Source of the DNA: SAR324 cluster bacterium
GTDB taxonomy: Bacteria; SAR324; XYD2-FULL-50-16
Length of the DNA stretch: 64,000 nucleotides
Direction: 5' to 3'
Assembly (NCBI GenBank): GCA_028282885.1
Contig: JANQGX010000059.1
Location: 64,906 to 128,905, forward strand
The position numbers and the translations under genes are program-made. Positions within the stretch are counted from its first letter, which is position 1. Each line of letters opens with the position of its first letter. Shown in pieces: positions 1-21,041 of this stretch. The notes under the pieces are model-generated. The model made no database searches and was not told the DNA's origin. It worked only from the letters and a program-made list of their open reading frames with translations.

Positions 1-780
1 TTTCCCTGTTGTTTGCCGTTCCAGCCCGTCGTCGGATTCAACAATTTTGATAGAGACTTCGGCGCTGTCCTCCACAAAGATAAAAACATCCTTGATGGCA
101 TTGACCCCTTTATCTGTTGTCAGGAGAATATCCCAGGCAGAGTAACAACTTTCAGGATCTATTTCATCAAGCGCGGGGAGAGCCTTTGTATTACCGATGA
201 CAATGCAATCTCCCAGTTCCCTTAACTCATCAATCAGCAACAGGGGATTTGTTCCGAAAGCAAAGATATCGACAGCAGGTTTAAACTTAACACGAAAGGT
301 TTGGGATTCATTGGTGAGCTCTTCTTCCGGGATGAATTTCGGGTCCTCTCTCTCTTCTTCCCCCGGTGTTTTTTGTAGCATATTTAAAAAAGCATTCGAT
401 ATTCCCTCTCTTTTCCGGATTTCATCTACACTTTGTTCAGAGGAATCGAGCATTTTGCCGATTTGATCATGTGCGGCCAATGTCAGTGCGATTAAATCGT
501 CGGTTACGGGAAGAGAGCCATCCCTGACCTGGTCATAAACCGACTCGATATTATGAGTGAAGGATTCGATTTCAGTGAATCCAAACATACCACCCGAACC
601 TTTGATGGTATGGAGAGCCCGAAAGGCTGCTGCGACTAATTCCTGATCGCTGGGATTATTTTCCAGCTCCAGCATAATCTCTTCAAGCTCGTCCAGACGC
701 TCGGCCGCTTCTTCCCTAAAGGCGGCAACTCCACTCTCCTCAAGCTCCTCAGGAGTCAGTTTCGTGTTTTTTTCGTTCAT
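1..780 (-). CDS. cheA: Chemotaxis histidine kinase CheA, N-terminal part. The start codon is at 780 and the gene continues past the left window edge.
   Basis: Minus-strand translation from the ATG at 778-780 gives MNEKNTKLTPEELEE...AAFRALHTIKGSGGMFGF..., which carries the canonical CheA P1/HPt phospho-histidine motif (HTIKGxxGxxG). There is no stop before position 1, so the six-frame track, which requires a stop, does not list it. It sits downstream of cheY in the che operon. Confidence 0.82.
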   Translation of the reverse strand, partial: MNEKNTKLTPEELEESGVAAFREEAAERLDELEEIMLELENNPSDQELVAAAFRALHTIKGSGGMFGFTEIESFTHNIESVYDQVRDGSLPVTDDLIALTLAAHDQIGKMLDSSEQSVDEIRKREGISNAFLNMLQKTPGEEEREDPKFIPEEELTNESQTFRVKFKPAVDIFAFGTNPLLLIDELRELGDCIVIGNTKALPALDEIDPESCYSAWDILLTTDKGVNAIKDVFIFVEDSAEVSIKIVESDDGLERQTTGK

Positions 781-876: not shown

Positions 877-1257
877 TCATCCCAGCACTTTTTTTACAAC
901 ACCGATTAGCTGTTCCGGTTTGAAAGGTTTCACAATCCATCCCGTTGCACCGGCAGCCTTACCTTCCTGCTTCTTGTCTGATTGTGATTCGGTGGTCAGG
1001 AGGATAATCGGTATAAACTTGAAATCCGGATTGGATCGAACCTCCTTTATCAACTCGATTCCATTCATATTGGGCATATGAAGATCGGTCAGGACCATAT
1101 GCGCAGGAGTTTGTTGCAGTTTGGATAGTGCATCAACCCCGTCAACAGCTTCCACAACCTGATATCCTTCATTTTTAAGTGTAAAGGTGACCATCTGCCT
1201 GATACTGGCGGAGTCATCTACAGTTAAAATGATCTTTTCCATATCGACCGTAAGCAT
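877..1257 (-). CDS. cheY: Single-domain CheY-like response regulator
   Basis: 126 aa containing only a receiver domain (ILTVDDSASIRQMV...LTDLHMPNMNGIEL...KP). Located between cheB and cheA. The likely true start is the internal Met of MEKIILTVDD. Confidence 0.85.
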   Translation of the reverse strand: MLTVDMEKIILTVDDSASIRQMVTFTLKNEGYQVVEAVDGVDALSKLQQTPAHMVLTDLHMPNMNGIELIKEVRSNPDFKFIPIILLTTESQSDKKQEGKAAGATGWIVKPFKPEQLIGVVKKVLG

Positions 1258-1318: not shown

Positions 1319-2404
1319 TCACTTGCAGATCCTGATCACTTCTCCGGCAATCCTGTTTAAATCCAGAACCTGATCTGCAGCGCCCAGCTTGATGGCTTCA
1401 TTTGGCATCCCAAACACAACACAACTGTTTTCATCCTGGGCAATGGTTACAGCGCCGGATTCCTTCATTTCAAGCAAGCCTTTGGCTCCGTCATCCCCCA
1501 TCCCCGTCATGATTACGCCACAGGCATTTTTGCCCGCATAGCGCGAGGCAGAGCGAAACAACACATCGACAGAGGGACGATGGCGGCTGACGAGCGGACC
1601 ATTTTTTACTTCCACGTAATATCGAGCTCCGCTTCGTTTCAGGAGGGTGTGTTTATTGCCGGGAGCAATAAGGACTCTTCCCCTCACAACGGAATCGTTG
1701 TCGCGGGCTTCCATCACTGTTACCCTGCACATCCCGTTCAGCCGGTTGGCAAAGGCAGTTGTAAAGTTTTCAGGCATATGTTGGACAATGACAGTTCCCG
1801 GGGCATCCGAGGGAAGAGCTTCCAGAAAAACTCTCAGGGCCTCCGTGCCTCCTGTGGAAGCTCCGACAACAACGATCTTTTCGGTAGTCTGAACCATGGC
1901 CTTTGACGTTGATTTCGGTAAAACCGCATCGGCTGTCAGTTTTTTGGTTGGCCGTATTCCCTTTTCGGGCGTATTTCGTTTCTTCGGTTTTGTTTGGGCA
2001 GCAGCTTTGACAACATCACAGATAAGGATTTTCGATTCCTCAAGAAACTGTTTGGTACCCAGTTGTGGCTTATGAATGATATCGACTGCCCCTAATTGCA
2101 GGGCTTTTATGGCCGTTTCCGAACCTTTGTCCGCAAGACTTGAACAGATGACGACAGGAATCGGGTGTTGTGACATCAGTTTCTGCAAAAAGGTAATGCC
2201 GTCCATTCTGGGCATTTCCACATCAAGTGTTATGACATCCGGTTCCACGGAGTGCATTTTTTTTGCCGCAATATAGGGATCCGAAGCCGTACCGATAACG
2301 GAGATTTCCTGATCCGATGACAGGGTGCGTTCCAGGGCCTGCCTGACCACAGCCGAATCATCAACGATAAGCACCTTTATAGGATTCATTGGTTTGCTCT
2401 TCAA
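1319..2404 (-). CDS. cheB: Chemotaxis protein-glutamate methylesterase CheB (REC domain plus CheB methylesterase domain)
   Basis: An N-terminal receiver domain ([13 protein letters not shown]...[12 protein letters not shown]) is followed by the methylesterase domain ([13 protein letters not shown]...[10 protein letters not shown]...[10 protein letters not shown]). The annotated start is a TTG; an ATG (MNPIK) lies at 2389. Confidence 0.9.
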
Positions 2405-2418
2405 ACAAAATGTCCTGA

Positions 2419-3267
2419 CTAGACAGATTTTCTAAAAACGGTTGGAAATACCGGCTCTACCGGAAGACGCATTCCCTGGGTAGACTCTGAATGTCCCTGA
2501 AACAGGTATCCGCCCGGAACCAGACGACTGATTATTTTTCCAAGGATAGCTTCCTGGGTTTCCTTATTAAAATAAATAATGACATTTCTACAGAAAGCGA
2601 TATGGATGTTTTGCTCAATCCCAAAGTCCTTGTCCATCAGATTCAGTTTTCGAAAGGTAACCTTATCCCTGATTTCCGGTGCGATTTTAACGATCGGTTT
2701 TTTATAGTCCCTGCTTTTTAGCAGGTACTTCTTCCTTAAAGCCAGCGGGATCGGATCTATTTGGGAAGTGTGATACACAGCATTTTTGCCCATGGACAAG
2801 ACATTGTCCGAAATATCCGTGGCCAGGATAGAAAAGTTAAACCGGATTTTCGGATTCCTGGATGCAAATTCACTAATTACCATCGCCAGGGTGTAGGCCT
2901 CTTCACCTGAAGAGCATCCTGCACTCCATATTCTCAACTGCCTAATATTATTACCGCTCTGGTTCAGTAATGATGGCAGGATATTCTGTGAAAGACGGGA
3001 GAAATGGTCCGGTTCTCTGAAAAAATCGGTTTTGTTGGTTGTAACCTTGTTAATGAAATGAGGGATTTCTTCTTGTCTTCCCTCGGCACTGAAGAGATAG
3101 TCGCAATACTCCTTATAGTCATTGATCTTGAGTTGTCGGAGTCGCTTCATGAGCCGGGATTCAAGCATTGTTTTCTTGACGGCCGGCATCTTGATCCCGA
3201 ATTCAGATTCGATAAAAGAGCTGAGTCGGTTAAAATCCGATTTTTTCAGGGTCTGCAATCCGATCAT
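2419..3267 (-). CDS. cheR: Chemotaxis protein methyltransferase CheR
   Basis: CheR N-terminal helical domain and SAM-dependent methyltransferase core ([18 protein letters not shown]...ILATDIS...NVIIYF). The ORF runs to a GTG at 3294. The in-frame ATG at 3265-3267 overlaps the STAS gene TGA by 1 nt (TGATG), so the ATG was chosen. Confidence 0.88.
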
Positions 3268-3590
3268 CAGTCTGCCCCACCAAAACAGAGCCACTTTGTC
3301 CAGGACAGTCCGGCACTTTCAACTGCTTCTCTGAACAATTGCGGGCAGTCGCCTTTCAGGCTAAGCTGCTTGTCCAGTTTTTTTGCCGTCAGGTGAAGTG
3401 CAAAAAGGAGTTGGATGGAAGAGAGATCAAACAACTGTACTTCATCCAGGTCGAGTATACAGTCGTCTGCGGAACTCAGAAATCCGGACAGCACATCCTT
3501 TAACTTGCTGGCATCCTGAATCATCAGATTGCCACCCAGTTTCAGCTCTGCTCTCTGGTTTGTCTCATCGAACTTAATGTCAGTTTCCAT
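3267..3590 (-). CDS. STAS-domain protein (anti-sigma-factor-antagonist / SpoIIAA-like) embedded in the che operon
   Basis: 107 aa. The predicted fold pattern and the motif ...ILDLDEVQLFDLSSIQLLFALHL... resemble SpoIIAA/STAS proteins. Its stop overlaps the cheR start by 1 nt, indicating translational coupling. Confidence 0.55.
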   Translation of the reverse strand: METDIKFDETNQRAELKLGGNLMIQDASKLKDVLSGFLSSADDCILDLDEVQLFDLSSIQLLFALHLTAKKLDKQLSLKGDCPQLFREAVESAGLSWTKWLCFGGAD

Positions 3591-3660: not shown

Positions 3661-4152
3661 TCAACTGATTTCGGCGGCGTTCTGCAGTATTTCAAGCTCG
3701 TCTAATGTGAAGACTTTTTCGATCTCCAGAATGATAATGAACTCTTCATCGCGTTTGCCCATACCCCGGATCAGTTCGGTATTGAGTCGGGTTCCAATCT
3801 TAGGCGGAGGTTCAACATGCTCATCTTCGAGATCAATAACTTCCTGAACCGAATCTGCCAAAGCCCCAATCAGGGTATTCTCGCCATCCAGCTCCAGTTC
3901 AACGATAACTACACAGGTGTTGACCGTTTTTTGAGTCTCACCCATACCAAACTTCAGTTTCAGGTCAATAACCGGGACCACACTTCCACGGAGATTAATA
4001 ACGCCACGCATCATGTCGGGAGTCTGGGGCACTTTGGTGACCCTGTCAAATTCCAATACCTCCCTGACCTGATCGATGCCCAGGGCAAATACCTCACCTT
4101 CAAGTTTGAAGGTAAGATACTGACCTGCTTGCAGGGTTATAGTTTCATTCAT
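3661..4152 (-). CDS. cheW: Chemotaxis coupling protein CheW
   Basis: CheW-like domain (QYLTFKLEGEVFALGIDQVREVLEF...MRGVINLRGSVVPVIDLKLKFG). The start was chosen at MNETITLQ because a GAGGA Shine-Dalgarno sits 8 nt upstream; the longer ORF to 4185 would overlap the upstream MCP stop. Confidence 0.85.
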   Translation of the reverse strand: MNETITLQAGQYLTFKLEGEVFALGIDQVREVLEFDRVTKVPQTPDMMRGVINLRGSVVPVIDLKLKFGMGETQKTVNTCVVIVELELDGENTLIGALADSVQEVIDLEDEHVEPPPKIGTRLNTELIRGMGKRDEEFIIILEIEKVFTLDELEILQNAAEIS

Positions 4153-4165
4153 GATTATATCCTCA

Positions 4166-6252
4166 TTAATAACGTTCAAACTCACTGTCAGAGAGGTTCA
4201 TGCCGTCATCAAGGTTGATAGCTACCTTGGGATAAGCCTCTTCGGGTTTTTTTCTGCCATTTTCGAGTCGCGGAATATCAGCGACATTCTCTGGCTGTTT
4301 ATGTGAAATCTGACTGAATCCCTGGCGGGAAGAGACAGGCTTTGCTTTACTTACAGGGGGGGCATGTCTGGATGTGCCATTTACTTTGAAATAATCGATT
4401 GAACTCTGAAGTTGTTGAGCCTGGGCGGCCAATTCTTCAGAAGTTGATGCCATCTCTTCGGTAGCACTGGCATTTTGTTGAATCACAGAATCAAGCTGTT
4501 GGATAGCCTTATTGATTTGATCGACGCCGGCATTTTGTTCATTGCTGGCAGCGCTGATCTCCTGGACCAGTTCCGCTGTTTTCTGAATATCGGGTACCAG
4601 TTTCTCCAGCATCTGGCCTGCTCTTTCAGCAACTTCAACACTGTTGGATGATATCTGCGAGATTTCACCGGCTGCAGTTTGACTGCGTTCTGCCAGCTTA
4701 CGAACCTCCGCAGCCACCACTGCGAATCCCTTTCCATGTTCACCGGCCCGTGCTGCTTCAATTGCCGCATTCAGGGCCAGGAGATTGGTATTTCGTGCAA
4801 TTTCCTCAATGATGGATATCTTGGAAGCGATTTCGTTCATGGCACCTACAGCCCTATTAACGGCGGAACCGCTCTCCTTGGCATCCCTGGATGCCTGGAT
4901 GGCGATTTGCTCGGTCTGGCTTGCGTTATCCGCGTTCTGCTGAATGTTGGCGCTCATCTGCTCCATGGAGGAGGTGGTCTCTTCCACCGAAGCCGCCTGT
5001 TCGGTAGCTCCCTGGGACAACTGCTGGGCAGTCGAACTCAGTTGTTCGCTGCCAGCAGTGACATTATCCACTGCCAGCCTGATTTCCCCAACAATAGAGC
5101 TGAGCTTGGACACCATCTGGTTAAGTGCGTGTGCCAGTTCTCCCACCTCATCCTTCTGATCCAGATCCAGTTGATCGGTCAGATCCCCTTCGGACACCAC
5201 CTTTGCAAAACCAACGCCTTTGCCGATGGGACCGGTTATTGCCTTGGCAATAACGATAGCGATAATGATACCGATGACCAGTGCGACAACACAGATAATA
5301 ACAACAACCAGGCGGGTGTTGATTGCTTTGTCCAACATGAGGTCTTCTGAAATGACATTTTGACGGGTTGTATCAATCAGTCCGTCGAGCAGGTTTGCCA
5401 CTTTATCCAGGTTGGGCTGGGTTTCATTGGCAAAAACAGCCCTGGCCTTTTTAGCTCCCTCGAGATCGGATTGGGCTTTTGCCTGAAGCTGCTTGAGATA
5501 ACTTCTGGTCTCTATGAGTGTCTGTGTGGTCTCATTCCGATAGATTACAAAAGCTTCCTCGGTTTTTCCTGCTTTCAAGGCTTCGTCTATCCTGATGGCC
5601 GAATCATGGAGACGTTTGTGAGGCACTTTAATCTCCTCCAGGAGTCTGGCATACTCAGAATCCGAACTGGCCATTTGCCGTCCAACCTCTCCGAAAAGCA
5701 GTTTACCAAAAGCACATTGGGTATGATCCAGTTGAACACCGGTTTTTTCACTCTTACTCAAAATGGCATTCTGGATCTGCTCGGCCCAAGCCAGATGATC
5801 AGTTTCCCTGTTCGCCAGAATAGCGGGAAGCTGTTCGTTTGCCTGGCTAAACACTTCTTTGATTTCAATAGCAGATTCATGGAGTAGGCGATGGGGTTCT
5901 TCTATTGCTGTAAAAAGAGGTTTCAAGGCGGGTATCAGCGCCTCTGCCTTTTTTCTTCCCTCTCCGTAATACCATTTGCCGAATCCGCATTTGCGATAAT
6001 CGGTTTCAACGGTCAATTCAGTGTGTTGATCATCTGTCAGGAGTTTGTTCACTTCACCAGCCCATTTGAGGTGATCCACTTCTCTTTGCAGGAGGATACC
6101 AACCAGCTTGTTTCCTTCTGCGAGTTCCTGGGCATCTGAAACGATACCGTCAATCCCGTTCCAGGCCCAGCCCCCGACGAAAATCATTAAGACAAGAACA
6201 ATTCCGACACCGAGTAGTATCTTTCTTCCAAGTTTCAGGTTTTTCCAGCTCA
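4166..6252 (-). CDS. Methyl-accepting chemotaxis protein with two TM helices, a periplasmic sensor built from two tandem CZB-like (chemoreceptor zinc-binding) modules, HAMP and an MCP signalling domain
   Basis: TM1 is [19 protein letters not shown]; TM2 is [22 protein letters not shown]. Between them are two copies of the HxxW..(~26 aa)..CxFGxW/L..(~27 aa)..HxxxH motif: DHLKWA...CGFGKW...HRLLH and DHLAWA...CAFGKL...HKRLH. They are followed by HAMP and the MCP signalling domain ([37 protein letters not shown]). The start was set at MSWKNL, where an AGGAGA RBS is present; the ORF extends to 6340. Confidence 0.85.
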
Positions 6253-6764
6253 TTGTATCTCCTAATTGTTCTATTGATAGTATTGATTCTCCCCAAACCT
6301 GGATTTCCGGATTTGGGTTTGTGCATAGCTCAGGGGACAAACTACAACAAACGTGCCAGTGTAGTAATGAGTATGAAAAGCTATTAATAACAAAGTATTT
6401 GGAGATGATCCGATATCAAAGATGATAAATTTGGGTATTCATATCCTCGTTTACTTGATTGTTGTCTGAAAAAACTAGACAGCTTCTACTATAACCTCCG
6501 GCATCATATCAAACGTCCGGGGAACTTGAGCAATGCTGTAGAACTCCGGAATCTTTCTTATCCGGCCAACTCCCGGAGTGAAAACTGCCTTTTCCGGTAT
6601 TGAGTCCAGCTATTGATCTCATTGTTGAGATTCCGGGTTAATCGGAGCCGTTTCCATGAAATTATCAGACAGTTTTTTCAAAAGTCTGTCAGAAACAGAA
6701 TCCTTTAAAACAAATATCGGCGGAATCCTGTTTCTGTATTTTAGATTGTGGTTTATAGACCAAA

Positions 6765-9647
6765 CTAATAACGCTCAAATTCGGAATCTGAGAGATCAAC
6801 ATTATCGTCCAGGTTTACAGCAACCTTTGGGATGGATTCCATCTTCTTGTTGTGGCTGCTTTCCAGTTGCGGGATTTTTTCTGCGATCGAGGATTTGCCA
6901 TTGGCGGGGTGATTAAAACCTCCTCTAAGCAGTCCTGCATCGGTCCCTTTCAGATGAATTGCTTTATGTTGCTGATTCCCGTTAATCTTGAAAAAATCAA
7001 TAGTACTCTGAAGCTGTTGGGCCTGGGCTGCCAGTTCTTCAGCAGTTGATGCCATCTCCTCGGTAGCACTGGCATTTTGCTGAATAACGGAATCAAGCTG
7101 TTGGATAGCTTTGTTAATCTGGTCCACACCTGAATTCTGTTCATTGCTGGAAGCACTGATTTCCTGGACCAGTTCTGCAGTTTTCTGGATATCCGGAACC
7201 AATTTTTCCAGCATCTTTCCTGCTTTTTCTGCAACATCAACGCTATTGGCAGAAATATTGGAAATCTCTCCTGCCGCATTTTGGCTGCGTTCAGCCAGCC
7301 TTCTGACCTCCGCTGCAACAACCGCAAATCCTTTGCCGTGCTCGCCAGCCCGAGCCGCTTCAATTGCTGCGTTAAGAGCCAGAAGGTTGGTGTTCCGTGC
7401 AATTTCCTCAATAATTGAGATTTTTGTTGCAATTTCATTCATGGCTGAAACTGTCTTATTCACTGCATCACCACTTTCTTTTGCATCTTTTGCGGCCTGA
7501 ATGGCGATTTTTTCTGTTTGATTTGCGTTGTCGGCATTCTGCTGAATATTTGCGCTCATCTCTTCCATTGAAGAGGTAGTCTCTTCCACCGATGCCGCCT
7601 GTTCAGTAGCGCCTTGCGAGAGTTCTTCCGCTGTTGAGCTTAACTGCTGACTGCCCGAAGTGACATTATCTGCGGAGCTTCTGATAGTGCCGACAATATC
7701 CCCTAGTCGATGCATCATCTCTTTCAAAGCTGTCGAAAGCAAACCGATTTCGTCTTTCTGCCGAACATCGATATCTGCTGTGAGATCTCCATCGGAAACC
7801 AGTTGGGCGAGCCGAGTTCCTTTGCCCAGGGGTTTTGAAATGCTCAGGGCAATAAACATGGCAATGCCTCCCACAAGAATCGCAATGATCAGTCCCATCA
7901 CTAAAATGGATATCAGGAGAGCGTTAACAGGTTCCATGATTTCGGCTTCATCAATTTCTGCAAGAAGAGCCCAGGTTTGATCCCAAAGCTTTATTGGTGT
8001 ATAGGCCGATAAAACCGGATTCCCGTTGTAATCAGTTATGATCTCGGAAGAAGTCTCCCCCGACAATGCATTTATGGCGGCTTTTGTATCCACTCCATTG
8101 GCTTTGACTGTGCCCGCGAATGATGCTTTTACAGAGTGACCTGCGGGATCTAGAAAGGAGTCGGAACGCATCAGTTTGTCAGGACCCACAAGATAGGTTT
8201 CTCCTGTTCTGCCCATTCCTTCACGTTCCTGCATGATACTGTTTATGGCATCCAGGGGAAGTTGCAGTGCAATAATCAGCTCAACCCGGTTTTCAGAAAC
8301 AATCGGTTGAGCGATAAAAGCGCACGGTTCATTGTTGCTGGGTGCGTAGGGATGGAAATCAGCAAATCCAAATTTTCGTGTATTCAAGACCTGTTTGACC
8401 AGTTTGCCCAGGTTGGAGGAGGAATACCTTCCGTTCAGCATATTGGTTTGATAGTCCGACTCACGGGTCACCGTGTAAAACACAAATCCATCCGGGTTAA
8501 TCAGAAACAGATCGTAATAACCATACATCTCCTTGTATTTTGCATAAAATTCATTGCCATCGCTGTCAACCGGGCTAAAGGCTTCTGCAACATCAATTTC
8601 TGAAATCATGGCCCAACGAATGCCATCGCCGATTTCAACCGGGGCCCAGGCGGAGAGGACAGGGTTTCCGTTATAATCGATTATCACTTTCTGATCCTCA
8701 TTTCCGGCCAGAGCCGATCGTACCGCTTCGGTGTTAACAGCAGTGTTGTTCTTAAAAGAGGCAACAACGGAGTGACCTTCAGGATCCAGGTAGGAATCGG
8801 AACGCATCAGGCCGTCCTGTCCGACAAGATAGGATTCGCCAGTCTTTCCCATCCCGTGTCGAAGCAGCATGATATCATTGATCTTCTTTAAGGGAATCTG
8901 CAAGGCTGCAAAACCGATCAGCTTGCCTTCATCATCACGCATTTGGGCCATCATAAATGCAGAAGGAATCCCCCCTGATGGTTCATAAGGCATGAAATCA
9001 CCGATGGCAATGTCGTTTGGCCCCATGGACTGCGCTTTTTTAAAGGCAGAACCAAGGCTGCTTCTAACGAGGCTGCTATCAGGAATGGTCACCCCTAGGT
9101 CTGATTCCTTACCCACGGTGTAAACAATATCTCCGTCATGGTGAATCAGGAAAAGATCGTACCAGCCGAACTCTGTCTTTATGTTGTTCAAACGTTGGTC
9201 GTATTTTTTCAGTAACACATTCCAGCGGGAACCCCCGACTCTATCTCCGTCATCTTCAAAAGCTCGGTCGAACTCCACAAGCGCCTGCATGCTATAGGGA
9301 TCATCACGAAAAGACCTTAGTTGAGATTTCAAGGTGGAGATATAATTATTAATATGCGAGTTTTTCAGCTCCTGAATAGCTTCCAGCTTGAGAAATGCCT
9401 CTTTTCTCAGGGTTCCAACCGTTTCAACCAGAACCCCCATGTCTCCTTCCCGTTCAGCAAAGTACTTCTCTACCTGGGCTTTTTTTATCCCCCTCACCGA
9501 CTCCAACTGACCGAAAGACTTATCCAGCAGTGCGTTGCTGGCAAGACGACCACTCCAGAATCCGACGATGATAAGGGGAATAATACCGACCATTAGAAAC
9601 AGGCTGATTAGTTTAGGTTTCATTTTGATATCATTGAGTTTCACCAT
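6765..9647 (-). CDS. Methyl-accepting chemotaxis protein with a large (~530 aa) periplasmic sensor built from duplicated Cache-like modules, HAMP and an MCP signalling domain
   Basis: N-terminal TM ([19 protein letters not shown]). Two internally similar about 260-aa periplasmic modules ([17 protein letters not shown]... and [17 protein letters not shown]...). A second TM ([25 protein letters not shown]), then HAMP, then a signalling domain about 85% nucleotide-identical to that of the neighbouring MCP. A GGGAGG RBS lies 5 nt before the start. Confidence 0.85.
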
Positions 9648-9882: not shown

Positions 9883-11916
9883 TTAGAAAAATTCTATGTT
9901 ATCGCCCAGATCTTCATCGGCAGCTTCGTTGTCCGGCATAGGCTCCGTATCATCGAAGAGCTCGATGGTTCCTGTGTCGTTTTCATCAAGGGATTGGTTC
10001 GTACTGGACGAAGAGGTGTCAAGCGAAGCCCTGTGAATATCACGTTCGGCTTGCATGGTGTACTTGTTTTTTAACTCCTGCAGGGCAGGATCTATCAAAT
10101 CAATTCCCTGTTCTGATTGAGGCAGGTGTTCCTTAAACTGCTGACAGATGTTTTCCAAACCTTTCATGACATGATCCAACCCTTCGTTGATGGCCCTGCT
10201 GAATTGCAGTTTGTCCACCAGGTCTGAGAAGTCCGCCTTCAACCTTCGGGTTGCGGCCGAGCAGTTGGAGGCATTTTCATCTGTTTGCAGAAGCGTGAGG
10301 ATCGAGGTTCCAATCCGGTCAAAGCTTTCATCCACAGTTTGCATGGACTCTCTTAAATTCAACAGTAGATCGCCTGTGATCTTGTTTGAGTCACTGCTTA
10401 TGGAACTTATAATATCCAGCCTGTCCGAGATCTGGTGTTGTACGGATTGAGAAATAGTGTTTATTTCTGTTGACAACACGGCAAGCGGTTTTCCGAGACG
10501 ACCAATCGCTGAGGCTTTTATCATTGAATTGAGAGCCAACAGCCGTAGATTTAATTCATTGGATTCGATTAAGGAGCTGACCCTGGTGATGCCGCTGACA
10601 TGTTTACTGAGAAGGTCCGTCGAGTTCATCAGTTCATAATTGACTTTTTTATAGTCGCCAAGATGGGAATAAAATTCTTTCAGCAGTTCATCGAGTTTGC
10701 CGATATCCTGTTCAAGCGACATCATGGTTGGAATGATTTGGTCGGCTGTGTCCGATTGTTTTTGCATCAGGTTTAGAATCCTGGTAAAGGATTGGGAGAG
10801 ATTACCGGACACTTCTATGTTTTCATTTTTGAGATTCTGCAGTTGGGCCATTTGCAGATTTAAAACTGCTGTTGCCCAGGCTCTCAGTTTTGACAGGTCT
10901 TTTTCAGTTCCGGTTGCAAATCCTGAGAGATCTGATTGGACCTCTGAAAGATTGTGGCTGATGTGTTCCAGTCTCTGTCGGTAATTGTCATGAAACTGGA
11001 GATAGGTTACAATCTCACCGATCGCCGAGGAGATGGAATTGATAAATCCGCCCATCTGCTGACAGGTGTTAATACTACGCTCTACCTTGCCCGAAATTAC
11101 AGACATCTGTTCCTGGATTTTTCCTTGTTCCTGAACAAGCGAAAGCTGGTTACTTCTGTTTTTGTTTTCAATGCGTGAGAGAATTTTTTGAATCAAATCA
11201 ACGGTTTCTGTCGATGCATTTTTGATCTCCCCGGCATTCCCGGTAATCAGTTCCTCCAGTGTTGTCAAATCGTCCGCAACCGTGTTGAATTCCAGACAAC
11301 CAGCGTTCTCGGTTTCAATCCGGATCATTACCCGCACCATACGCAAGGCTCTGTAAGTTCTGTCCAGAGACTCATTTAGCTCTGTGATTGCTCCAATATT
11401 AGCCTCCATTTTACCTAAAGCGACGGACAGATCGGAGAGAGCGTTTTCAGCCTGATCCGCCTTGGAGAATCCGTCATTCAACGCCTTCCGGATTGATTTT
11501 AGATCAGCTGCTTTGCCGGTGTTCAGAGTGGTGATAACTTTATCAGCCAGGGCTGCATTCTGGTTGTTTATAGTGTTGATATGATTTAACCGTTCTCCCA
11601 GGTAAAGAAACTCCTTTTCAGTTGATTTTGACAGATTATCCAGCTTTGATGCCATATCGGCCAACCCGGAGTTCCAGCTATTAATCGGCAACATGGCAGG
11701 CAAAGACCGCTGTGGATCTGATTTCGGAGGAAGTGATTCGAGTTCCGGAAGTTCAGATTTCTGCAGAATGGAGTTTCGCGTGAAAACCTGATTGTTCTTT
11801 TCCGTGAGCCTGTTTCCCAACCGTGATCTTAAGAATCCGAAAAGCTTTGCAAACCAACCGGGATAAGCGGTAGTTATGATGGTTTTATCTTTCAGTACCA
11901 TATTTGTAGTCTGCAT
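9883..11916 (-). CDS. Soluble, highly divergent MCP-like coiled-coil protein with two hairpin-tip-like segments
   Basis: 677 aa with no TM helix and mostly predicted coiled coil. Residues around 190-230 (ALRMVRVMIRIETENAGCLEFNTVADDLTTLEELITGNAGEIK) and around 455-490 (LRLLALNSMIKASAIGRLGKPLAVLSTEINTISQS) both align to the MCP tip consensus [34 protein letters not shown]. It is the first gene of the che operon and has an acidic C-terminal tail ending ...DNIEFF. Confidence 0.5.
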   Translation of the reverse strand: MQTTNMVLKDKTIITTAYPGWFAKLFGFLRSRLGNRLTEKNNQVFTRNSILQKSELPELESLPPKSDPQRSLPAMLPINSWNSGLADMASKLDNLSKSTEKEFLYLGERLNHINTINNQNAALADKVITTLNTGKAADLKSIRKALNDGFSKADQAENALSDLSVALGKMEANIGAITELNESLDRTYRALRMVRVMIRIETENAGCLEFNTVADDLTTLEELITGNAGEIKNASTETVDLIQKILSRIENKNRSNQLSLVQEQGKIQEQMSVISGKVERSINTCQQMGGFINSISSAIGEIVTYLQFHDNYRQRLEHISHNLSEVQSDLSGFATGTEKDLSKLRAWATAVLNLQMAQLQNLKNENIEVSGNLSQSFTRILNLMQKQSDTADQIIPTMMSLEQDIGKLDELLKEFYSHLGDYKKVNYELMNSTDLLSKHVSGITRVSSLIESNELNLRLLALNSMIKASAIGRLGKPLAVLSTEINTISQSVQHQISDRLDIISSISSDSNKITGDLLLNLRESMQTVDESFDRIGTSILTLLQTDENASNCSAATRRLKADFSDLVDKLQFSRAINEGLDHVMKGLENICQQFKEHLPQSEQGIDLIDPALQELKNKYTMQAERDIHRASLDTSSSSTNQSLDENDTGTIELFDDTEPMPDNEAADEDLGDNIEFF

Positions 11917-12643: not shown

Positions 12644-14083
12644 CTATCTGATTGCGATGCTTAAGTGGTGCTTCTTCAGGAGCTGATAAAGTCGGGCCCT
12701 TGAGATCCCGGAAATTCGGCAGGCTTCCCGAACGTTATTCCCGGATAAGGTTATCAGCTCTTTCAGATAGTTTATCTCGGCATTGTCAATGACTTTGGTT
12801 TTAAACTCTTTCAGGTTGGGAAAGGGCTGCTGTCGGTCGATTCTTGCAGGATGAGATATCGTTGAATCAGCCGCTTTCTTGCGCGAGATTTCGGTGCTTT
12901 GCAGTCGGATATGAAGTGGCAGATGTTTCACAAACAGTGTTTTTTCACCCTGAATCTGTCCGAGGGTTGTTTCAAGGGTGTTGATCAGCTCCCGTACGTT
13001 ACCTGGCCAGTGATAGCTTTTCAGGGCTTCCAGAAACTCCGGGGTTATCCTTTTGGGTTCGGTTTGCAATCGTTCACAGATTTTTGAGATATAGTAGGTT
13101 GTCAGCTCATTAATATCTTCCAAACGTTTTCTGAGAGGGGGGAGATGAATTTGGTGAGTTTGCAGTCGAAAGAGCAGATCTTCTCTGAATGCCCCGTTTT
13201 TGACCTCTTCAGCAAGGTTGCGGTTAGTGGCGGAAATCAACCGGAAGTCGCTGCTCACTTCCCGACTTCCCCCGACAGGACGGAATTTTCTCTCCTGCAG
13301 AGCCCTCAGAAAAGTCTTTTGAATATTCAATGGCAGCTCTCCAATCTCATCCAGAAAGAGCGTACCGCCATCAGCCTGTTTCATCAGACCGGTATGATTT
13401 TCGGTGGCACCTGTGAAAGCTCCTTTGATATGACCGAACAGGACGCTCCCCACCAGGTTTTCCGGTAGCGAGGCACAGTCAACCACTACCATGTTTTTAT
13501 CCGATCGCTCGCTGTTCTTGTGTATCGCCAGGGCGAAAACTTCCTTGCCTGTACCGGTTTCACCGGAGATTAGAACATTGGTATTGCTGTTGGCTGCTTT
13601 GGCGACCTGCTTCAGCGCCTGTCTTATCTCGCGTCCCTCCCCTATTACACCTTCCCTGTCCAGAATCAGCAGGGGATTAAGTTCTTTCTTTTCCTTTTGA
13701 TATTGCAGAACTCTTGTCAGGGTAAGAGACAGTTTTGATATGGCGGGGGGTTTTTCAATATAGTCCCAAGCCCCGTTTTTCAGGGCAAGTTCTGCACCTG
13801 TTTCATCCCCATCGCCTGTTACGATGATAACCTCAGGCTGGTAGGACAGTTTACATATTTCCGGAAGAGCGGACAAACCGTCTCCGTCGGGAAGCATTAC
13901 ATCCAGCAAAACAATGTCATAGACATTTTCCTGCAGGTTTTTCATTCCGGCACCAAGGGACAGCTCAAATCTGGCATAATAGCCCATTTTCAGGAGATGT
14001 CTGAGCATGACATCGCAAAACATTTCGTCGTCATCGACAACCAGTATTCTGGATTGTGGTGTTGATTTAGCCTTCATATGCAA
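12644..14083 (-). CDS. Sigma-54-dependent response regulator (NtrC family: REC, AAA+ sigma-54 activator and Fis-type HTH domains)
   Basis: Receiver domain (ILVVDDDEMF...LLDVMLPDGDG). Walker A (ISGETGTGKEVFALAIH). GAFTGA sigma-54 contact motif (FGHIKGAFTGA). C-terminal HTH (NNVREACRISGISRARLYQLLKK). Confidence 0.9.
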   Translation of the reverse strand: MHMKAKSTPQSRILVVDDDEMFCDVMLRHLLKMGYYARFELSLGAGMKNLQENVYDIVLLDVMLPDGDGLSALPEICKLSYQPEVIIVTGDGDETGAELALKNGAWDYIEKPPAISKLSLTLTRVLQYQKEKKELNPLLILDREGVIGEGREIRQALKQVAKAANSNTNVLISGETGTGKEVFALAIHKNSERSDKNMVVVDCASLPENLVGSVLFGHIKGAFTGATENHTGLMKQADGGTLFLDEIGELPLNIQKTFLRALQERKFRPVGGSREVSSDFRLISATNRNLAEEVKNGAFREDLLFRLQTHQIHLPPLRKRLEDINELTTYYISKICERLQTEPKRITPEFLEALKSYHWPGNVRELINTLETTLGQIQGEKTLFVKHLPLHIRLQSTEISRKKAADSTISHPARIDRQQPFPNLKEFKTKVIDNAEINYLKELITLSGNNVREACRISGISRARLYQLLKKHHLSIAIR

Positions 14084-14108
14084 TAATGGTTTAAAAGAAT
14101 GCTGATGA

Positions 14109-15683
14109 TCAGGGAGTATTGGTTTGACCCGGTGTCTTCAATTCCGACTGAGTATCGATGGTCAGGATTTGCCTGATTTTTTCATCCAGTTGATCCACCA
14201 TGAACGGTTTCATGACGATGTCTCTGATTCCGATCTTCTCCGCTTGCTCTTCTGCCAGTAGTTCATCATAGCCCGTACAAATGATGACGGGAATATCGGG
14301 TCGGATTTCCAGTATTTTCCTGGCCAGCACATCACCGGTATAACCGTTCATGTTCATGTCGCTAATCACAATATCAAACTGTGTCGGATCCTGCTTGAAA
14401 CAGGCGAAAGCGCCAACACTATCGGCTTTGGCCGTAACCTGATATCCCATCGTCTCCATTGAGCGAATCATGAACTCAATGATCTGTTCATCGTCATCTA
14501 CAAAGAGAATTCTTGCTCCCGGCCCCGCATTCCGGTTCGTAACCGTGGGGGCAGGTGGCTCCTGCTTTCTCTCGAAAAGAGGAAGGATCACGGTGAAACA
14601 GGCTCCTTCTCCCTGTTTGCTTTCCACATCAACAGCTCCTTTCAAATCTTCAACAATGCCATAAACGACCGGCAGACCCAGTCCGGTTCCCTTTTTCATG
14701 GATTTGGTTGTAAAATAGGGCTCAAATATCCTCTCTCTGATTTCAGGGGGCATACCGATACCGTCATCTCTGACAATGATCTTCAGGAACTTGGATGAGG
14801 GGCCCTGCGGCATGTTCAAAGGATCGATATCGTTCTGATCGGTGTTTTCAAGCAAGATCTCCAGTTTTCCTCCCTTTTCCTGCATGGCCTCTGCCGCATT
14901 GGTGCAGAGATTCATCAGTATCTGGTGAACGTTCACGGGATCCGCCATCAGGATATCGGACTGATTTTTCAGCGAGAGGCGGATTTCAATATTGGCCGGT
15001 AAGGTTTTTTTCAGCAGCTTGGTAATCTCTTTGACAATGGGATTAACGCTGATTTGCGCCAGTTCCGGCTTTCGGCGGCGACTGAAAGTCAAGATCTGCT
15101 TGACAAGAAAGCTGGCCCTTTTGGCAGCCTTGATAATCTGCCGGACACTGTAAGCTCCTGGCGCATCATCCTTTAATTCATGCCGAACGGCAAATTCCGC
15201 GTTTCCCAGAATAGAGGAAAGTATATTGTTAAAATCATGAGCGATTCCTCCGGCCAAAGTGGCAACAGCTTCGGTTTTCTGGGCATGGCGGAGTTGTGAT
15301 TCCAGTTCTTTTTCCCTTGAGATATCCTTGATATGAGAGATAAAGAACTGGGGTGTGTTTTCTGAATTCCGATTAAGAAAGACCCCCACGGAAGTCCAGA
15401 AGTGATCACCATTTTTCCGCAGAAACCGCTTGCTGAAGCTGATATTTTCAAGATTCCCTTCGAGAAGCCGATTCAGATTGTTTTGAGTTGTTTCCAGGTC
15501 ATCCGGATGTGTCAGGTTGAAGCAGGTCTTCATTTGAAGTTCCTTTTCACTGAACTCCAGAATTTTACACATGTAGGGATTAGCGGAAATTATCTTGCCG
15601 CTAAGGTCCATCATGTAGATGCCTATGGATAGATTGTTAAAGACTGAGCGATAGAAATCGTTGCTGTCTGTAAAGGAGTTCAT
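14109..15683 (-). CDS. Hybrid sensor histidine kinase (PAS, HisKA, HATPase_c and C-terminal receiver domains), cytoplasmic
   Basis: PAS domain (NPYMCKILEFSEKEL...), H-box (IAHDFNNILSSILGNAEFA), G-boxes (GTGLGLPVVYGIVE) and a receiver domain (ARILFVDDDEQIIEF...VISDMNMNG). It ends 26 nt before the start of the downstream NtrC-like regulator. Confidence 0.85.
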   Translation of the reverse strand: MNSFTDSNDFYRSVFNNLSIGIYMMDLSGKIISANPYMCKILEFSEKELQMKTCFNLTHPDDLETTQNNLNRLLEGNLENISFSKRFLRKNGDHFWTSVGVFLNRNSENTPQFFISHIKDISREKELESQLRHAQKTEAVATLAGGIAHDFNNILSSILGNAEFAVRHELKDDAPGAYSVRQIIKAAKRASFLVKQILTFSRRRKPELAQISVNPIVKEITKLLKKTLPANIEIRLSLKNQSDILMADPVNVHQILMNLCTNAAEAMQEKGGKLEILLENTDQNDIDPLNMPQGPSSKFLKIIVRDDGIGMPPEIRERIFEPYFTTKSMKKGTGLGLPVVYGIVEDLKGAVDVESKQGEGACFTVILPLFERKQEPPAPTVTNRNAGPGARILFVDDDEQIIEFMIRSMETMGYQVTAKADSVGAFACFKQDPTQFDIVISDMNMNGYTGDVLARKILEIRPDIPVIICTGYDELLAEEQAEKIGIRDIVMKPFMVDQLDEKIRQILTIDTQSELKTPGQTNTP

Positions 15684-15998
15684 ACGAAATTCCTGAAAAA
15701 GGTCCAGGTTGGAAATATTTTAAAAACCAAATGGATAGTTTAGTAGACGATACTTCCGACACTATCCGCGATCATCTAATCGCGGATTTTATCGCATCTT
15801 AACACAGTTTTTAGTCAAAAACCAGTATCTGTTATCATGATAGTACGGATTATGGTCATCGAACCGATGTCATCCTTACATTTACAGATTCAAACATTTT
15901 GAAGAAAGTTCTATTGAGGTGTTGTCAGGCAGCTTACGGGAGTTGTGAATTTCTGGAGGTGATTCCAAATCTCCCCGGGTTTGGGTGTGATTCCGTAT

Positions 15999-17483
15999 CT
16001 ACTCGTTCACGAAGGCAGGTTCTTTAATTTGAAACCTTATCTTGAAGTGCGTCCCTTTGGATCTGATCAATTCCAGGCTTCCGTTCAGTTGGGTTTCGAC
16101 CAAGGCCTCAACCAGGTTCAGGCCTAATGTATCCGAGGTATTCAGGTCCACATGCGGAGCAATTCCGACACCATTGTCGGATACGGCACCAACCAGGTGC
16201 TGTCCGGATCTCTTCAAGCTCACGGAAACCGTACCGTTTTTTTCCCCGGGAAAGGCATATTTTAAAGCATTTGAAACCAGTTCATTGATTACCAGCCCTA
16301 ATGGCATTGCCTGTTCAATAGCCAGTACCAGGGATTCTGTATCGATGGAAAAGGTGACTCTCGGTGAAACGGTCGCGTATGTCTGAAGCAAAGGAGTGAC
16401 AATTCGGGAGACATATGTTTTCAGGTTTATCCCCGTAAGGCTTTCTGATTGATAAAGTGTTTCGTGGATGGCTGATAAAGCGTGGATCCTGAGCTGGCTT
16501 TCTTTCAGGGTTTCCCTGATAGCCAAGTTTTCTGTCCTGTTGGCCTGGAGGTTGATCAGACTTGAAATCACCTGCATATTGTTTTTTACGCGGTGATGAA
16601 TTTCCTTAAGGAGAATCTCCTTTTCGTGAAGAGAGTTTTTGATCTGCTCCTCCTTTTTTTTAGATTCGGAAATGTCTCTGGAGATTTTAATGATACCGGT
16701 CAGTTTTTCCTTACGATCCGTTAGGGGAATTCCTACACTTTCCCAATAGCTTTTCCCGACTCCCCTGAATTCAGATTGGTAGACCACCGCAGTTTCTTTT
16801 TTTTGGGTTTCCAGGGCTTTCAAACAGGGACATTCTTCGCAGGCTGAGTCCCTTAAGGTGAAAGCTTCGTAACAGTATTGCCCGACAGCCTTGTGGTTCA
16901 GGTTCAGGGCTGTTTGATTTGCCCAGAGGATTTTAAGATCCGGATCGAGATGAAGAATATGATCCGGGTTGTTGTCTAAGATATTTTTTAATTGTTCCTG
17001 ACTCTCCCGTAGTGCACTGGTCTTATCCCATAAAATCTGCATAAGGTCCTCTTTTTCCTGACGCAACTCGTCCCCAGCGTTTTTTATACGAAGCAATGCC
17101 CTAAGCTGGGCACCGAGTTCAGAAGCGTTCAACGGCTTAACCATCACAACATCCGCCCCCGAGTTCAAACCTCTGATTTTGTGTTCTATAGCGGTTGTTG
17201 ATGGCAATAGTATGACAAGGGGAGTATTGGCGGTGTATTCCATCGCCCTCAGTTTTTTACAGGCTTCAAAACTGTTTTTACCATTTCGCTTGACATCCAG
17301 CAGAATAGCATGTGGGGGTAGCGTTTCAATCTTTAACTTATCTTCATCCGGAGCTTCCACATAGTTTATCTCGCATTCAGGGAAGGCTTCACTCACCATG
17401 GCGGATAGGTCAATCGGATTTTTCTTTCGATCGCCTATTACTAAAATTCTTGTTTTTTTTGATTCTTTTTGATTGTTCACCAT
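15999..17483 (-). CDS. Signal-transduction histidine kinase with an N-terminal receiver domain, a PAS domain and a HisKA_2-type kinase core
   Basis: N-terminal REC-like domain (TRILVIGDRKK...ILLDVKRNG). PAS domain. H-box of the HisKA_2/HWE class (HHRVKNNMQVISSLINLQ). C-terminal ATPase (NELVSNALKYAF...DNGVGI). Confidence 0.8.
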   Translation of the reverse strand: MVNNQKESKKTRILVIGDRKKNPIDLSAMVSEAFPECEINYVEAPDEDKLKIETLPPHAILLDVKRNGKNSFEACKKLRAMEYTANTPLVILLPSTTAIEHKIRGLNSGADVVMVKPLNASELGAQLRALLRIKNAGDELRQEKEDLMQILWDKTSALRESQEQLKNILDNNPDHILHLDPDLKILWANQTALNLNHKAVGQYCYEAFTLRDSACEECPCLKALETQKKETAVVYQSEFRGVGKSYWESVGIPLTDRKEKLTGIIKISRDISESKKKEEQIKNSLHEKEILLKEIHHRVKNNMQVISSLINLQANRTENLAIRETLKESQLRIHALSAIHETLYQSESLTGINLKTYVSRIVTPLLQTYATVSPRVTFSIDTESLVLAIEQAMPLGLVINELVSNALKYAFPGEKNGTVSVSLKRSGQHLVGAVSDNGVGIAPHVDLNTSDTLGLNLVEALVETQLNGSLELIRSKGTHFKIRFQIKEPAFVNE

Positions 17484-17849
17484 GATGTGATTTTATCCTT
17501 TTAGCTACGGTGGAATCGATATCCGAAGCGAATACGCGGTCGAAATATTATGAAATTCCACGATTCTCACCCATATCATGTTCTAAGAAGTTGTAATTCA
17601 TCTCTCCATCGAATTGATCGTCTGCAACAAACGTACAAGATTGTCTGAAATCAAACAGAAAAAACTCTATCAATTTGATATCATTATCTTAACCTCGATT
17701 TTGATTCTCAACCGTTTATTTGATCCACAATTCGTGATATTTTTTTATGCTCAGTTACAGCTTCCGCTCCTTTGGGAGTTGACCAACAGGGATTGCAAGC
17801 GGATATTGAGCGACACTGTTAATGTGTGTTTTAGAGAAAGGATTATAAC

Positions 17850-18509
17850 ATGGGAGAAGATCTTTTACAGGACACTTATAATGGGGAAAGTCTTAGACTT
17901 TATTGTGACAAGCTTGCGAAAAGGGATAAAAGGATAAAAGGAATTCTTGGTGAGATTGGGTATCCACCATTCTGGCATCGCGATCCCGGTTTTAAAAGTC
18001 TTGTAATGATTATCCTCGAGCAGCAGGTTTCATTGGCATCGGCATTCTCGACCTATCAAAAACTGGAGACTCTCCTCAAAGAGATATCCCCGGGAAGAGT
18101 ATTGGGAATGAGTGATGCTCAGTTCAAGAGTTGTGGGTTCAGTCGTCAAAAGATGTCTTATGTCAGGGGATTGGCGGAGGAACTTGAAGCGGGCAGGTTG
18201 GATCTGGATACACTCAATAATCTTGATATCACTTCCCTCCGCAAGGAACTGCTTAACATAAAGGGAATCGGTAACTGGACAGTCGATGTTTACCTTTTAA
18301 GTTGTCTACACAAGCTGGACGTTTTCCCCATTGGAGATCTCGCTTTGATAAAATCCATGATTCAGGCAGGATTCATCAAGGATTCAGATTCGAAAGAAAG
18401 TATACAGCGCCGTGTGATGCGCTACAAACCCTATCGTTCCATTTTTACCATCATTCTCTGGTTCCGCTATATCAAGGTTAACAATATTAAGATTCAGTTT
18501 GATTTGTGA
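17850..18509 (+). CDS. HhH-GPD superfamily DNA glycosylase (AlkA / DNA-3-methyladenine glycosylase II-like)
   Basis: Helix-hairpin-helix plus Gly/Pro-rich loop with a catalytic Asp (LLNIKGIGNWTVDVYLLSCL...FPIGDLAL) and the upstream AlkA-like helical region. AAGGA RBS 8 nt upstream. Confidence 0.72.
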   Translation: MGEDLLQDTYNGESLRLYCDKLAKRDKRIKGILGEIGYPPFWHRDPGFKSLVMIILEQQVSLASAFSTYQKLETLLKEISPGRVLGMSDAQFKSCGFSRQKMSYVRGLAEELEAGRLDLDTLNNLDITSLRKELLNIKGIGNWTVDVYLLSCLHKLDVFPIGDLALIKSMIQAGFIKDSDSKESIQRRVMRYKPYRSIFTIILWFRYIKVNNIKIQFDL

Positions 18510-18561
18510 GAGAGTTCGAGATGGTTTTTCAGAAAAACACAATCGGCAGGGAATGACATAA

Positions 18562-18858
18562 ACCTATAAACTTGAAATTGAGCCGTTTCACAGGAATGGC
18601 GGCACTTTCTGGCTGGAAATCATGGCCAAGCTTGCCGAAGAGGATGGCATATTAAAGATTATTGGTGTGGTCCGCAATATTAACAAAATGAAAGTTTCGG
18701 AATTGGAACGTGAAAAACTGATTACCAAACTACGGAAAGCTTTGATGGAAAAAGAGAAGCTTCTGAAGGTGAATAACGGGGTACCCGGAATTAAAGATTG
18801 GAATATATCGGAAAAGGTGTTGCTCAATCGGAATAGAAGGTCATGGTTGGCGCGCTGA
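18562..18858 (+). pseudogene. Remnant of a PAS-domain sensor gene (C-terminal end of a PAS fold plus a coiled-coil linker); no start codon or N-terminal part
   Basis: The open frame from the stop at 18559-18561 reads TYKLEIEPFHRNGGTFWLEIMAKLAEEDGILKIIGVVRNINKMKVSELEREKL..., which has the typical terminal PAS strands (R.DG..FW.E....EDG...IGV.RDIT) and a coiled coil. There is no upstream coding sequence, and the stretch is overlapped by an antisense ORF. Confidence 0.4.
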
Positions 18859-19495: not shown

Positions 19496-19749
19496 TGATA
19501 TTCTATGCGATTAAGTTAATTTCTTCTAATATCCCACAATTCTTGTCCCCACTTTTTCACAGGTAAATCAGTTTGGCAAGTGATTCGAAAAGGGTCTAAA
19601 AACCGACGCCATCGATGTTTGAACAATAAAGTGGGTAACTTTGACTTCCAATAACGCAAACTGATGGGTTATGATGCAAACCAATGATATTGAACTCCAA
19701 TTTCTGTCAGCTTGACCTTTGACCAGGCAAGCTAATTGCTGCTTGAAAC

Positions 19750-20889: not shown

Positions 20890-21041
20890 AAAACGGAAAA
20901 TCAAACGGGTGAAAAATTGCAGTCATTCAACCACTTGTATCCATGCAAAAGGATGGTAGGTGACGATTTTTTAGTGTGAACAAAGGTACAATCCGACAAA
21001 ACCTATTTTAAGCTAGATCGCTTTTGGCAGGAAGAAAGATT

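Follow-up and report, generated by a model that had tools for sequence, protein, structure and literature searches.

What does a chemotaxis receptor sense when it carries two zinc-binding CZB domains in tandem, and on which side of the membrane does it sense it? This question is raised by a gene at positions 4166..6253 (minus strand) in a stretch of 64,000 nucleotides from a SAR324 cluster bacterium (contig JANQGX010000059.1, positions 64,906 to 128,905), to which we refer as the window. The gene product is a membrane chemotaxis receptor, a class I (two-TM) methyl-accepting chemotaxis protein (MCP; TM, transmembrane helix). In our preferred reading, to which we assign a probability of roughly 60%, its extracytoplasmic sensor is composed of two Zn-binding CZB modules, which sit one on top of the other along a single long return helix and serve metal or redox signalling. 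By analogy to characterised CZB proteins, the receptor most likely informs the neighbouring CheW-CheR-CheB-CheY-CheA pathway of Zn2+ occupancy outside the cytoplasm, and would in this way convey redox, oxidant or sulfide chemistry. Metal taxis or redox-gradient taxis would be the most likely role, in a diderm bacterium that is anaerobic or dwells in gradients.

The list of open reading frames (ORFs), the translation and Pfam matches to two CZB domains, HAMP and MCPsignal define a complete gene. A longer ORF (4166..6340) opens at an upstream TTG, but an ATG at 6253-6251 is preceded within 12 bases by GGAG and the stop codon lies at 4166-4168; therefore, we set the gene to 4166..6253, coding for 695 residues. 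The end coordinate of 6252 given in the initial annotation was one base short, and a translation of 4166-6252 contains 28 stops. The identical protein is present on two Logan metagenome contigs (runs SRR20820739 and SRR20820740). From the N- to the C-terminus, the protein consists of i) TM1 (~residues 12-30; 6164..6220), ii) CZB module 1 (residues 61-131, motif CGFGKWY; 5861..6073), iii) CZB module 2 (residues 153-222, motif CAFGKLL; 5588..5797), iv) the long return helix (residues 231-299; 5357..5563), v) TM2 (~residues 315-337; 5243..5311), vi) a HAMP domain (residues 336-385; 5099..5248; PF00672, E=2.3e-10), vii) the MCP signalling domain with its best Pfam stretch at residues 450-590 (4484..4906; PF00015, E=6.7e-35) and viii) the C-terminal sequence EFERY (residues 691-695; 4169..4183), all encoded on the minus strand. 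Both CZB modules were delimited by Pfam, ligand conservation and the helices of an AlphaFold2 (AF2) model, and the return helix by AF2 secondary structure, an internal repeat in this tail and the scaling of sensor length with module number.

The assignment of both modules to the CZB family agrees between several comparisons. With a regular expression for CZB, matches are obtained at residues 61-125 (HLKW...CGFGKW...HRLLH) and 153-216 (HLAW...CAFGKL...HKRLH), exactly the two motifs quoted in the initial annotation as a complete CZB signature occurring twice. Its spacers of 26 and 27 residues did not hold, as a count on the translation gives HxxW-24-CxFGxW-26-HxxxH for module 1 and HxxW-23-CxFGxL-26-HxxxH for module 2. 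A chance motif is excluded, since the expression matches only these two sites in the six-frame translation of the window. Against the Pfam CZB model (PF13682, gathering cutoff 29.4 bits), the whole protein scores 101.9 bits (E=2.4e-29) in two stretches. The check with a profile hidden Markov model, which had been proposed together with the motifs, turned out positive for each module alone: module 1 reaches 61.8 bits (E=7.9e-17) and module 2 49.8 bits (E=4.4e-13), with the 3His/1Cys ligand set complete in both. The modules are also homologous to each other (hhalign probability 99.95%, E=6e-38, 34% identity). The NCBIfam model of the CZB protein DgcZ matches residues 60-132 (E=7.9e-7, two stretches), and a profile built from 38 modules aligns with residues 1-132 of DgcZ in hhalign (E=1.1e-4, probability 56%). 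This match is weak but places the ligands in register, with H22/C50/H82/H86 of the profile on H22/C52/H79/H83 of DgcZ. The DgcZ sequence used agrees with PDB entries 3T9O and 4H54 (E ~1e-87); phmmer and profile searches of the PDB sequences with the sensor and the module profile as queries did not retrieve DgcZ, and for the module profile there was no PDB match. Taken at the level of sequence, both modules are CZB domains.

The candidate ligands are H61, C89, H121 and H125 in module 1 and H153, C180, H212 and H216 in module 2. All eight residues are invariant in an alignment of 34 sequences, for which 33 homologues were added, and likewise in 38 isolated modules; W64, G92, W156 and G183 are also invariant in the alignment of 34 sequences. 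In addition, both ligand motifs are complete in 151 of 157 sensors of two-module length. By analogy to E. coli DgcZ and H. pylori TlpD, each module would bind one Zn2+ via three histidines and one cysteine. C89 and C180, one for each module, are the sole cysteines of the sensor region. This pattern would also be compatible with a direct oxidant sensor, in which HOCl, H2O2 or species derived from O2 would convert the periplasmic Zn-thiolates of C89 and C180 to sulfenate; the local unfolding of the module would then switch the receptor, with Zn as a cofactor and not as the signal. Such a mechanism corresponds to the original model for TlpD and DgcZ, as the conserved cysteine is the HOCl-reactive residue in TlpD, McpA and DgcZ (PMC6715182; PMC8262984), and it would fit the oxic-anoxic interfaces inhabited by the hosts of related receptors. 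However, HOCl is host-derived and unlikely to be relevant for sediment anaerobes, and an exposed periplasmic thiolate would have no thioredoxin-type reductant nearby for its reset. Moreover, the newest work favours Zn2+ availability as the main CZB stimulus at physiological oxidant levels (bioRxiv 10.64898/2026.07.03.735341). Taken together, we regard direct oxidant sensing as unlikely.

The location of the sensor was derived from the membrane topology. Kyte-Doolittle analysis reveals exactly two strongly hydrophobic segments, at ~12-30 (window >1.6) and 315-337 (up to 3.7), the second of which lies within AF2 helix 303-349. The first 11 residues, which form the cytoplasmic N-terminus, contain four K/R and no D/E, resulting in a net charge of +4, and Pfam places HAMP and MCPsignal downstream of TM2. 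With two TMs, a positive N-terminus and the signalling modules after TM2, the region between the TMs is therefore extracytoplasmic, and both CZB modules face the periplasm. The same three features rule out a cytoplasmic location of the modules. Hence, the two-TM prediction agrees with the initial annotation, which had put the sensor between TM1 and TM2 outside the cytoplasm and had suggested to check this topology.

The AF2 model (pLDDT 92.5) also gives insights into how the two modules may be arranged. It is all-helical, with helices at 8-73, 90-106 and 108-134 for module 1 and at 142-165, 181-197 and 199-227 for module 2, followed by a single helix of 69 residues (231-299; pLDDT ~98 there) before TM2. 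This return helix contains two repeats of ~36 residues with the pattern A-x3-[YF]-x3-T-x-P-x-L, at 234-246 and 270-282; the two halves of the tail are homologous (hhalign probability 97.1%, E=5.5e-11) and the repeat columns are conserved. We also considered a third, degenerate CZB in residues 224-314, which was rejected by an hhalign probability of <1% against either module; the segment is a duplicated closing-helix repeat. The CZB of DgcZ (3T9O) has the helix order up-down-up-down. A forced global hhalign alignment of module 2 plus the first tail repeat with the full DgcZ CZB is collinear, albeit not significant, and we suggest that the tail repeat may correspond to the last helix of the DgcZ domain. 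On this model, we infer that the repeat at 234-246 closes module 2 and that at 270-282 closes module 1. Module 1 would then be membrane-proximal and continuous with the helix leaving TM1, and module 2 membrane-distal. At the level of the whole bundle, the second CZB would thus be nested inside the first and not simply follow it.

A comparison of sensors with different module numbers fits to this arrangement. The distance from the first ligand histidine to TM2 is 131, 256, 383 and 631 residues for one, two, three and five modules, and the tail from the last histidine to TM2 measures 67.5, 101, 137 and 202 residues, respectively. Due to this linear scaling, each extra module costs ~92 residues for the module itself and 34-36 residues of C-terminal tail, and the addition of ~35 tail residues per module implies stacked, nested four-helix bundles. 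Among the complete sensors of the top 150 representatives, two motifs are found in 79, three in 24, one in 12 and five in a single case (P0100); another protein, P0101, has four-module length with one motif degenerate. In P0100 and P0101, the third and later modules form a distinct subtype (HPGL...LDDHRRW...CAFGxWL) with an extra cysteine (G[SD]EC[KR]). If stacked, the five-module sensor of P0100 would be an estimated ~270 Å tall, which is longer than the typical width of the periplasm. Three modules are present in some of the closest relatives, i.e. L076 (a metagenome-assembled genome of Desulfobacula sp.), P0006 and P0009-P0013, which share 52-57% identity over modules 1 and 2; therefore, module gain and loss appear to be evolutionarily recent and frequent. 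For annotation, it should be considered that the Pfam CZB model lacks the closing helix, which in multi-module sensors is displaced to the C-terminal tail.

Regarding the distribution of this layout, a scan using one genome per species revealed at least 559 loci with relatives of the sensor in species-representative genomes, and layout and taxonomy were taken from the best 80 of them. In 78 of the 80, the order TM1-CZB-CZB-TM2 is retained with the motifs at near-identical positions. Magnetococcales contribute 18 loci, Desulfuromonadales and relatives, including the cultured Desulfuromusa kysingii DSM 7343, 14, and other Desulfobacterota a further 18, followed by Bacteroidales (6), Spirochaetes (5) and Gammaproteobacteria including Thiomargarita (4); the other 15 belong to SAR324, Nitrospirota, Zixibacteria, Planctomycetota, Latescibacterota or are unclassified. 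A search with the sensor domain yielded 97 clusters with a best identity of 60%, mostly annotated as "CZB domain-containing protein" or "methyl-accepting chemotaxis protein", and among 1.84 billion representatives, searched exhaustively with HMMER, there were 1952 matches at E<=1e-3 and 350 clusters at E<=1e-30.

The description of a duplicated extracytoplasmic CZB sensor as unusual is therefore overstated, since periplasmic N-terminal CZBs and N-terminal-CZB receptors with pentapeptides are already on record and two modules are the commonest form. In total, 384 sequences, ~3.9% of all CZBs, have been counted as putative periplasmic N-terminal CZBs of membrane chemoreceptors (Perkins et al., 2021, mBio, PMC8262984), and N-terminal-CZB receptors with C-terminal pentapeptides have been listed as well (Ortega and Krell, 2020, PMC7390727). 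As in the catalogued periplasmic subgroup, the CZB region of our receptor is N-terminal and lies between the two TM helices of an MCP, and the residue after the ligand cysteine is Gly or Ala instead of Arg, matching the description of this subgroup (PMC8262984). With the pentapeptide receptors it has in common an aromatic, pentapeptide-like C-terminus (PMC7390727). Judged by these features, the protein belongs to the catalogued periplasmic N-terminal-CZB chemoreceptor group, and receptors with its layout are widespread in bacteria of sediments and gradients, annotated in databases and in part already catalogued.

What these two studies provide are counts and alignments of such receptors. In neither of them did we find a mention of closing-helix repeats, and the supplementary text of PMC8262984 mentions neither the periplasmic set nor its carrier taxa. 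In the literature searched, the 2011 founding paper (PMC3165512) aside, we found no mention of a single chain with tandem, two, double or dual CZBs; where the TlpD preprint, alone among the CZB papers, speaks of "two CZB" domains, it means those on the two chains of a homodimer. Within this literature, the nested-helix organisation with one to five units appears to be undescribed.

How could such a sensor signal? In the mechanism we propose, helix 31-73 would rise from TM1, the Cys loop and the short helix 90-106 would fold back and helix 108-134 would rise. Module 2 (142-227) would repeat this helix pattern on top of module 1, and helix 231-299 would descend, closing module 2 first and module 1 second before it enters TM2. 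The sensor could be triggered when free Zn2+ outside the cell changes, when the Cys thiolate becomes oxidised, or when sulfide or oxidant-driven precipitation sequesters Zn. The gain or loss of Zn2+ would alter the packing of the TM1-linked against the TM2-linked helix, which would be relayed through HAMP to CheA, and CheR and CheB, for which the C-terminal EFERY may act as a tether, would carry out adaptation. For TlpD and DgcZ, it has been reported that Cys oxidation or loss of Zn changes the bundle and switches the output (PMC6715182; PMC8262984), and structures of TlpD couple a progressive distortion of the Zn site to the kinase-OFF state (bioRxiv 2026.01.16.699579). Besides, it has been argued that CZBs mainly track bioavailable Zn2+, which is lower under oxidising conditions, and hence act as redox sensors (bioRxiv 10.64898/2026.07.03.735341). 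With the sensor facing outward, a direct read-out of external free Zn2+ would be the most economical model, and where the carrier lineages live, free Zn2+ would be governed by sulfide and oxygen.

His3Cys sites are, from general coordination chemistry, not intrinsically Zn-specific. The sites could thus also hold or sense Fe2+, Ni2+, Co2+, Cu+ or Cd2+, or sulfide could attack or strip the bound Zn, so that the receptor would mediate sulfide or metal taxis. The enrichment of relatives in sulfur- and metal-cycling lineages (Desulfuromonadales, Desulfobacterota, Thiomargarita and Magnetococcales) is compatible with this idea. Nevertheless, all characterised CZBs bind zinc and nothing at this locus points to another metal, which makes this alternative very improbable.

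Several points weigh against the Zn2+ read-out by two stacked modules. The stacked geometry and the convergence of the ligands are derived from secondary structure, length scaling and the known topology of DgcZ. In addition, the loop C89-G-F-G-K-W-Y of module 1 conforms to the pattern C-X-(L/F)-G-X-W-(Y/L) (Perkins et al., 2021, PMC8262984), whereas the loop C180-A-F-G-K-L-L of module 2 deviates from it by a Leu in place of the canonical Trp. Across the aligned homologues, module 2 has W, F, L, M or I at this position; by profile score, ligand set and alignment to a confirmed CZB, module 2 is in line with the family. Furthermore, the Zn of TlpD is bound tightly enough to resist TPEN (PMC6715182), and if such binding holds here, Zn would be structural and not the signal. 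Finally, no experiment on any periplasmic CZB was found in the literature searched.

The chelation resistance of TlpD also speaks for a different scenario, in which the modules would be rigid, Zn-stapled helical bundles that act only as scaffold, and a small molecule or periplasmic binding protein would be the true effector, recognised at the dimer interface or between the modules as in 4HB, HBM, TorS and PilJ sensors. HBM (McpS type), TorS, PilJ and McpZ are likewise all-helical, elongated, two-tier periplasmic sensors of ~280 residues with long helices linking the tiers to the TMs. TorS (3o1i), PilJ (8wdf and 7zjr) and McpZ (8f7n) are the only sensor domains among the Foldseek neighbours, but every match is non-significant (E>0.03). 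What these sensors bind are organic ligands, anions or partner proteins, and they lack a 3His/1Cys site, which confines the likeness to the architecture. An identity as HBM, TarH or PilJ was rejected, as there are no Pfam matches and, for HBM (PF16591), none at E<=1. Between the tail and the last helix of 4HB_MCP_1 (PF12729) there is a weak resemblance (E=0.0035), but this match comprises the tail only and scores 17.4 bits against a cutoff of 27; several homologues have a precomputed PF12729 match. As one would expect of a specificity-determining region, module 2 and the tail are far more variable than module 1, with a mean pairwise identity among 59 homologues of 36.7% and 29.4% compared to 57.9%. 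On the other hand, the strongest conservation falls on the metal ligands and the Cys loop of both modules across phyla, and a second conserved pocket motif was not identified. In consequence, we consider a purely structural role of Zn to be quite unlikely and retain external Zn2+ as the preferred stimulus.

Compared to the characterised CZB chemoreceptors TlpD of H. pylori and McpA of S. Typhimurium, the receptor has in common the Pfam domain, the 3His/1Cys pattern, the CxFGxW loop and the MCP output to CheW/CheA. Both of these have just one CZB, which lies in the cytoplasm, on the C-terminal side of the signalling domain, and wraps the MA coiled coil (bioRxiv 2026.01.16.699579). In contrast, the receptor described here has two modules, which are N-terminal, extracytoplasmic and coupled via TM2 and HAMP. 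A further difference concerns adaptation, as a CheR/CheB system is encoded here, whereas H. pylori lacks one (bioRxiv 2026.01.16.699579). E. coli DgcZ (YdeH; a CZB-GGDEF protein, 3T9O and 4H54) is similar in having an N-terminal CZB with the four ligands in register with the module profile, but it is cytoplasmic and soluble with one CZB and a diguanylate cyclase output, and its sequence similarity to the modules is weak.

The proposed link of the receptor to a che pathway is borne out by the gene order, as the gene sits in a che operon together with CheW, CheR, CheB, CheY and CheA on the same strand. The co-directional cluster on the minus strand starts with a soluble MCP-like protein and an MCP with a double dCache sensor, followed by the tandem-CZB MCP and directly downstream by CheW (3661..4152; Pfam CheW E=1.2e-37; 163 residues on the identical contig), a STAS-domain protein (3267..3590; 107 residues; STAS_2 E=1e-10), CheR (2419..3294; CheR and CheR_N), CheB (1319..2404; CheB_methylest and Response_reg), a CheY-like response regulator (877..1257; Response_reg) and CheA. 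Of the latter, the first 260 codons (1..780) are included before the gene exits the window at its start, and all 260 residues are identical to the L081 protein, a CheA of 715 residues with Hpt, H-kinase_dim, HATPase_c and CheW domains. Beyond the window, the operon continues on the identical metagenome contig with the rest of CheA, CheD and a hybrid protein composed of response-regulator, PAS, kinase and CheW domains. The STAS_2 protein, located between CheW and CheR, overlaps with its 3' end the longest CheR ORF (2419-3294); STAS proteins are non-standard components of che operons.

The upstream paralogous MCP (6765..9647, minus strand), identified by Pfam and blastp, carries two dCache_1 domains as sensor. 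It shares 70% identity with the tandem-CZB MCP from TM2 to the C-terminus (577-960 versus 316-695, blastp), while the sensors are unrelated, and both transmembrane MCPs end in ...LSDSEFERY. Judging from the sequences, different sensors seem to have been exchanged on a shared signalling half. In pentapeptides that tether CheR and CheB, the key aromatic residues stand at positions 2 and 5 (PMC7390727), and EFERY has an aromatic F at position 2 and a Y at position 5. The F/Y pair differs from the predominant W/F pair of NWETF-type pentapeptides, and we regard EFERY as a pentapeptide-like, putative tether for CheR/CheB. The first gene of the cluster (9883-11916, minus strand) codes for 677 residues without an obvious TM and scores 32.4 bits against MCPsignal, with a cutoff of 34.6; the product may be an atypical soluble chemoreceptor-like protein. 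A homologue with 23% identity adjoins che genes in L072.

A conserved gene neighbourhood across the relatives was considered as well and rejected. A CheW-like tblastn match within the ~6-kb flank of the receptor is present in only 18 of the 80 loci and the neighbourhood is variable, so the receptor family is not bound to one operon type.

The remaining part of the window encodes a tungsten-type aldehyde:ferredoxin oxidoreductase, which points to an anaerobe. A comparison of the window with Rfam gave no match. Signalling genes are very dense at 12644-24703, 37339-39417 and 55327-59424 and comprise a sigma-54 response regulator, PAS hybrid kinases, a HisKA_2/HWE kinase, a CHASE5 kinase, a 7TMR-DISM kinase and a Reg_prop/Y_Y_Y hybrid kinase. 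A protein of 1011 residues (27041-30076, minus strand) combines a Peripla_BP_6/ANF_receptor domain with an MscS-type mechanosensitive channel domain and may be a ligand-gated MscS-like channel. At 33893-36925 (minus strand), an FG-GAP-repeat protein of 1010 residues coincides with a compositional anomaly (GC content 0.57 versus ~0.45 elsewhere; GC skew +0.13 to +0.19), for which Gly-rich repeats are a more probable cause than foreign DNA.

Extending our reading to the whole family leads to a more far-reaching hypothesis, which we put forward as possible but tentative. Extracytoplasmic CZBs could be modular, stackable sensors, in which one to five nested three-helix Zn units and closing repeats of ~35 residues build up a rod with one Zn site per ~50 Å. 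Gradient-dwelling anaerobes and microaerophiles (Magnetococcales, Desulfobacterota, Desulfuromonadales) might take external free Zn2+, read out by such sensors, as an indicator of sulfide and oxygen chemistry, and the copy number might tune sensitivity, cooperativity or reach. The receptor encoded at 4166..6253 would then represent the commonest, two-unit form.

To our knowledge, CZB biology to date comes entirely from three cytoplasmic proteins of host-associated bacteria, namely TlpD, McpA and DgcZ, and it is still debated whether CZBs sense zinc, HOCl or redox potential. As an outward-facing CZB would sample the environment directly, without Zn import or cytoplasmic buffering, it would provide a clean test of the 2026 proposal that Zn2+ serves as a redox proxy. 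Moreover, the natural series of sensors with one, two, three and five modules and conserved ligands constitutes a ready-made experiment on how the number of sites relates to the receptor response. The family is common in magnetotactic bacteria and in those cycling sulfur and metals. As sulfide and oxygen would set the level of free Zn2+ in their habitats, redox or metal taxis in sediments could depend on these receptors. The main value of the tandem-CZB receptors would therefore be a tractable system for settling what CZB domains sense.

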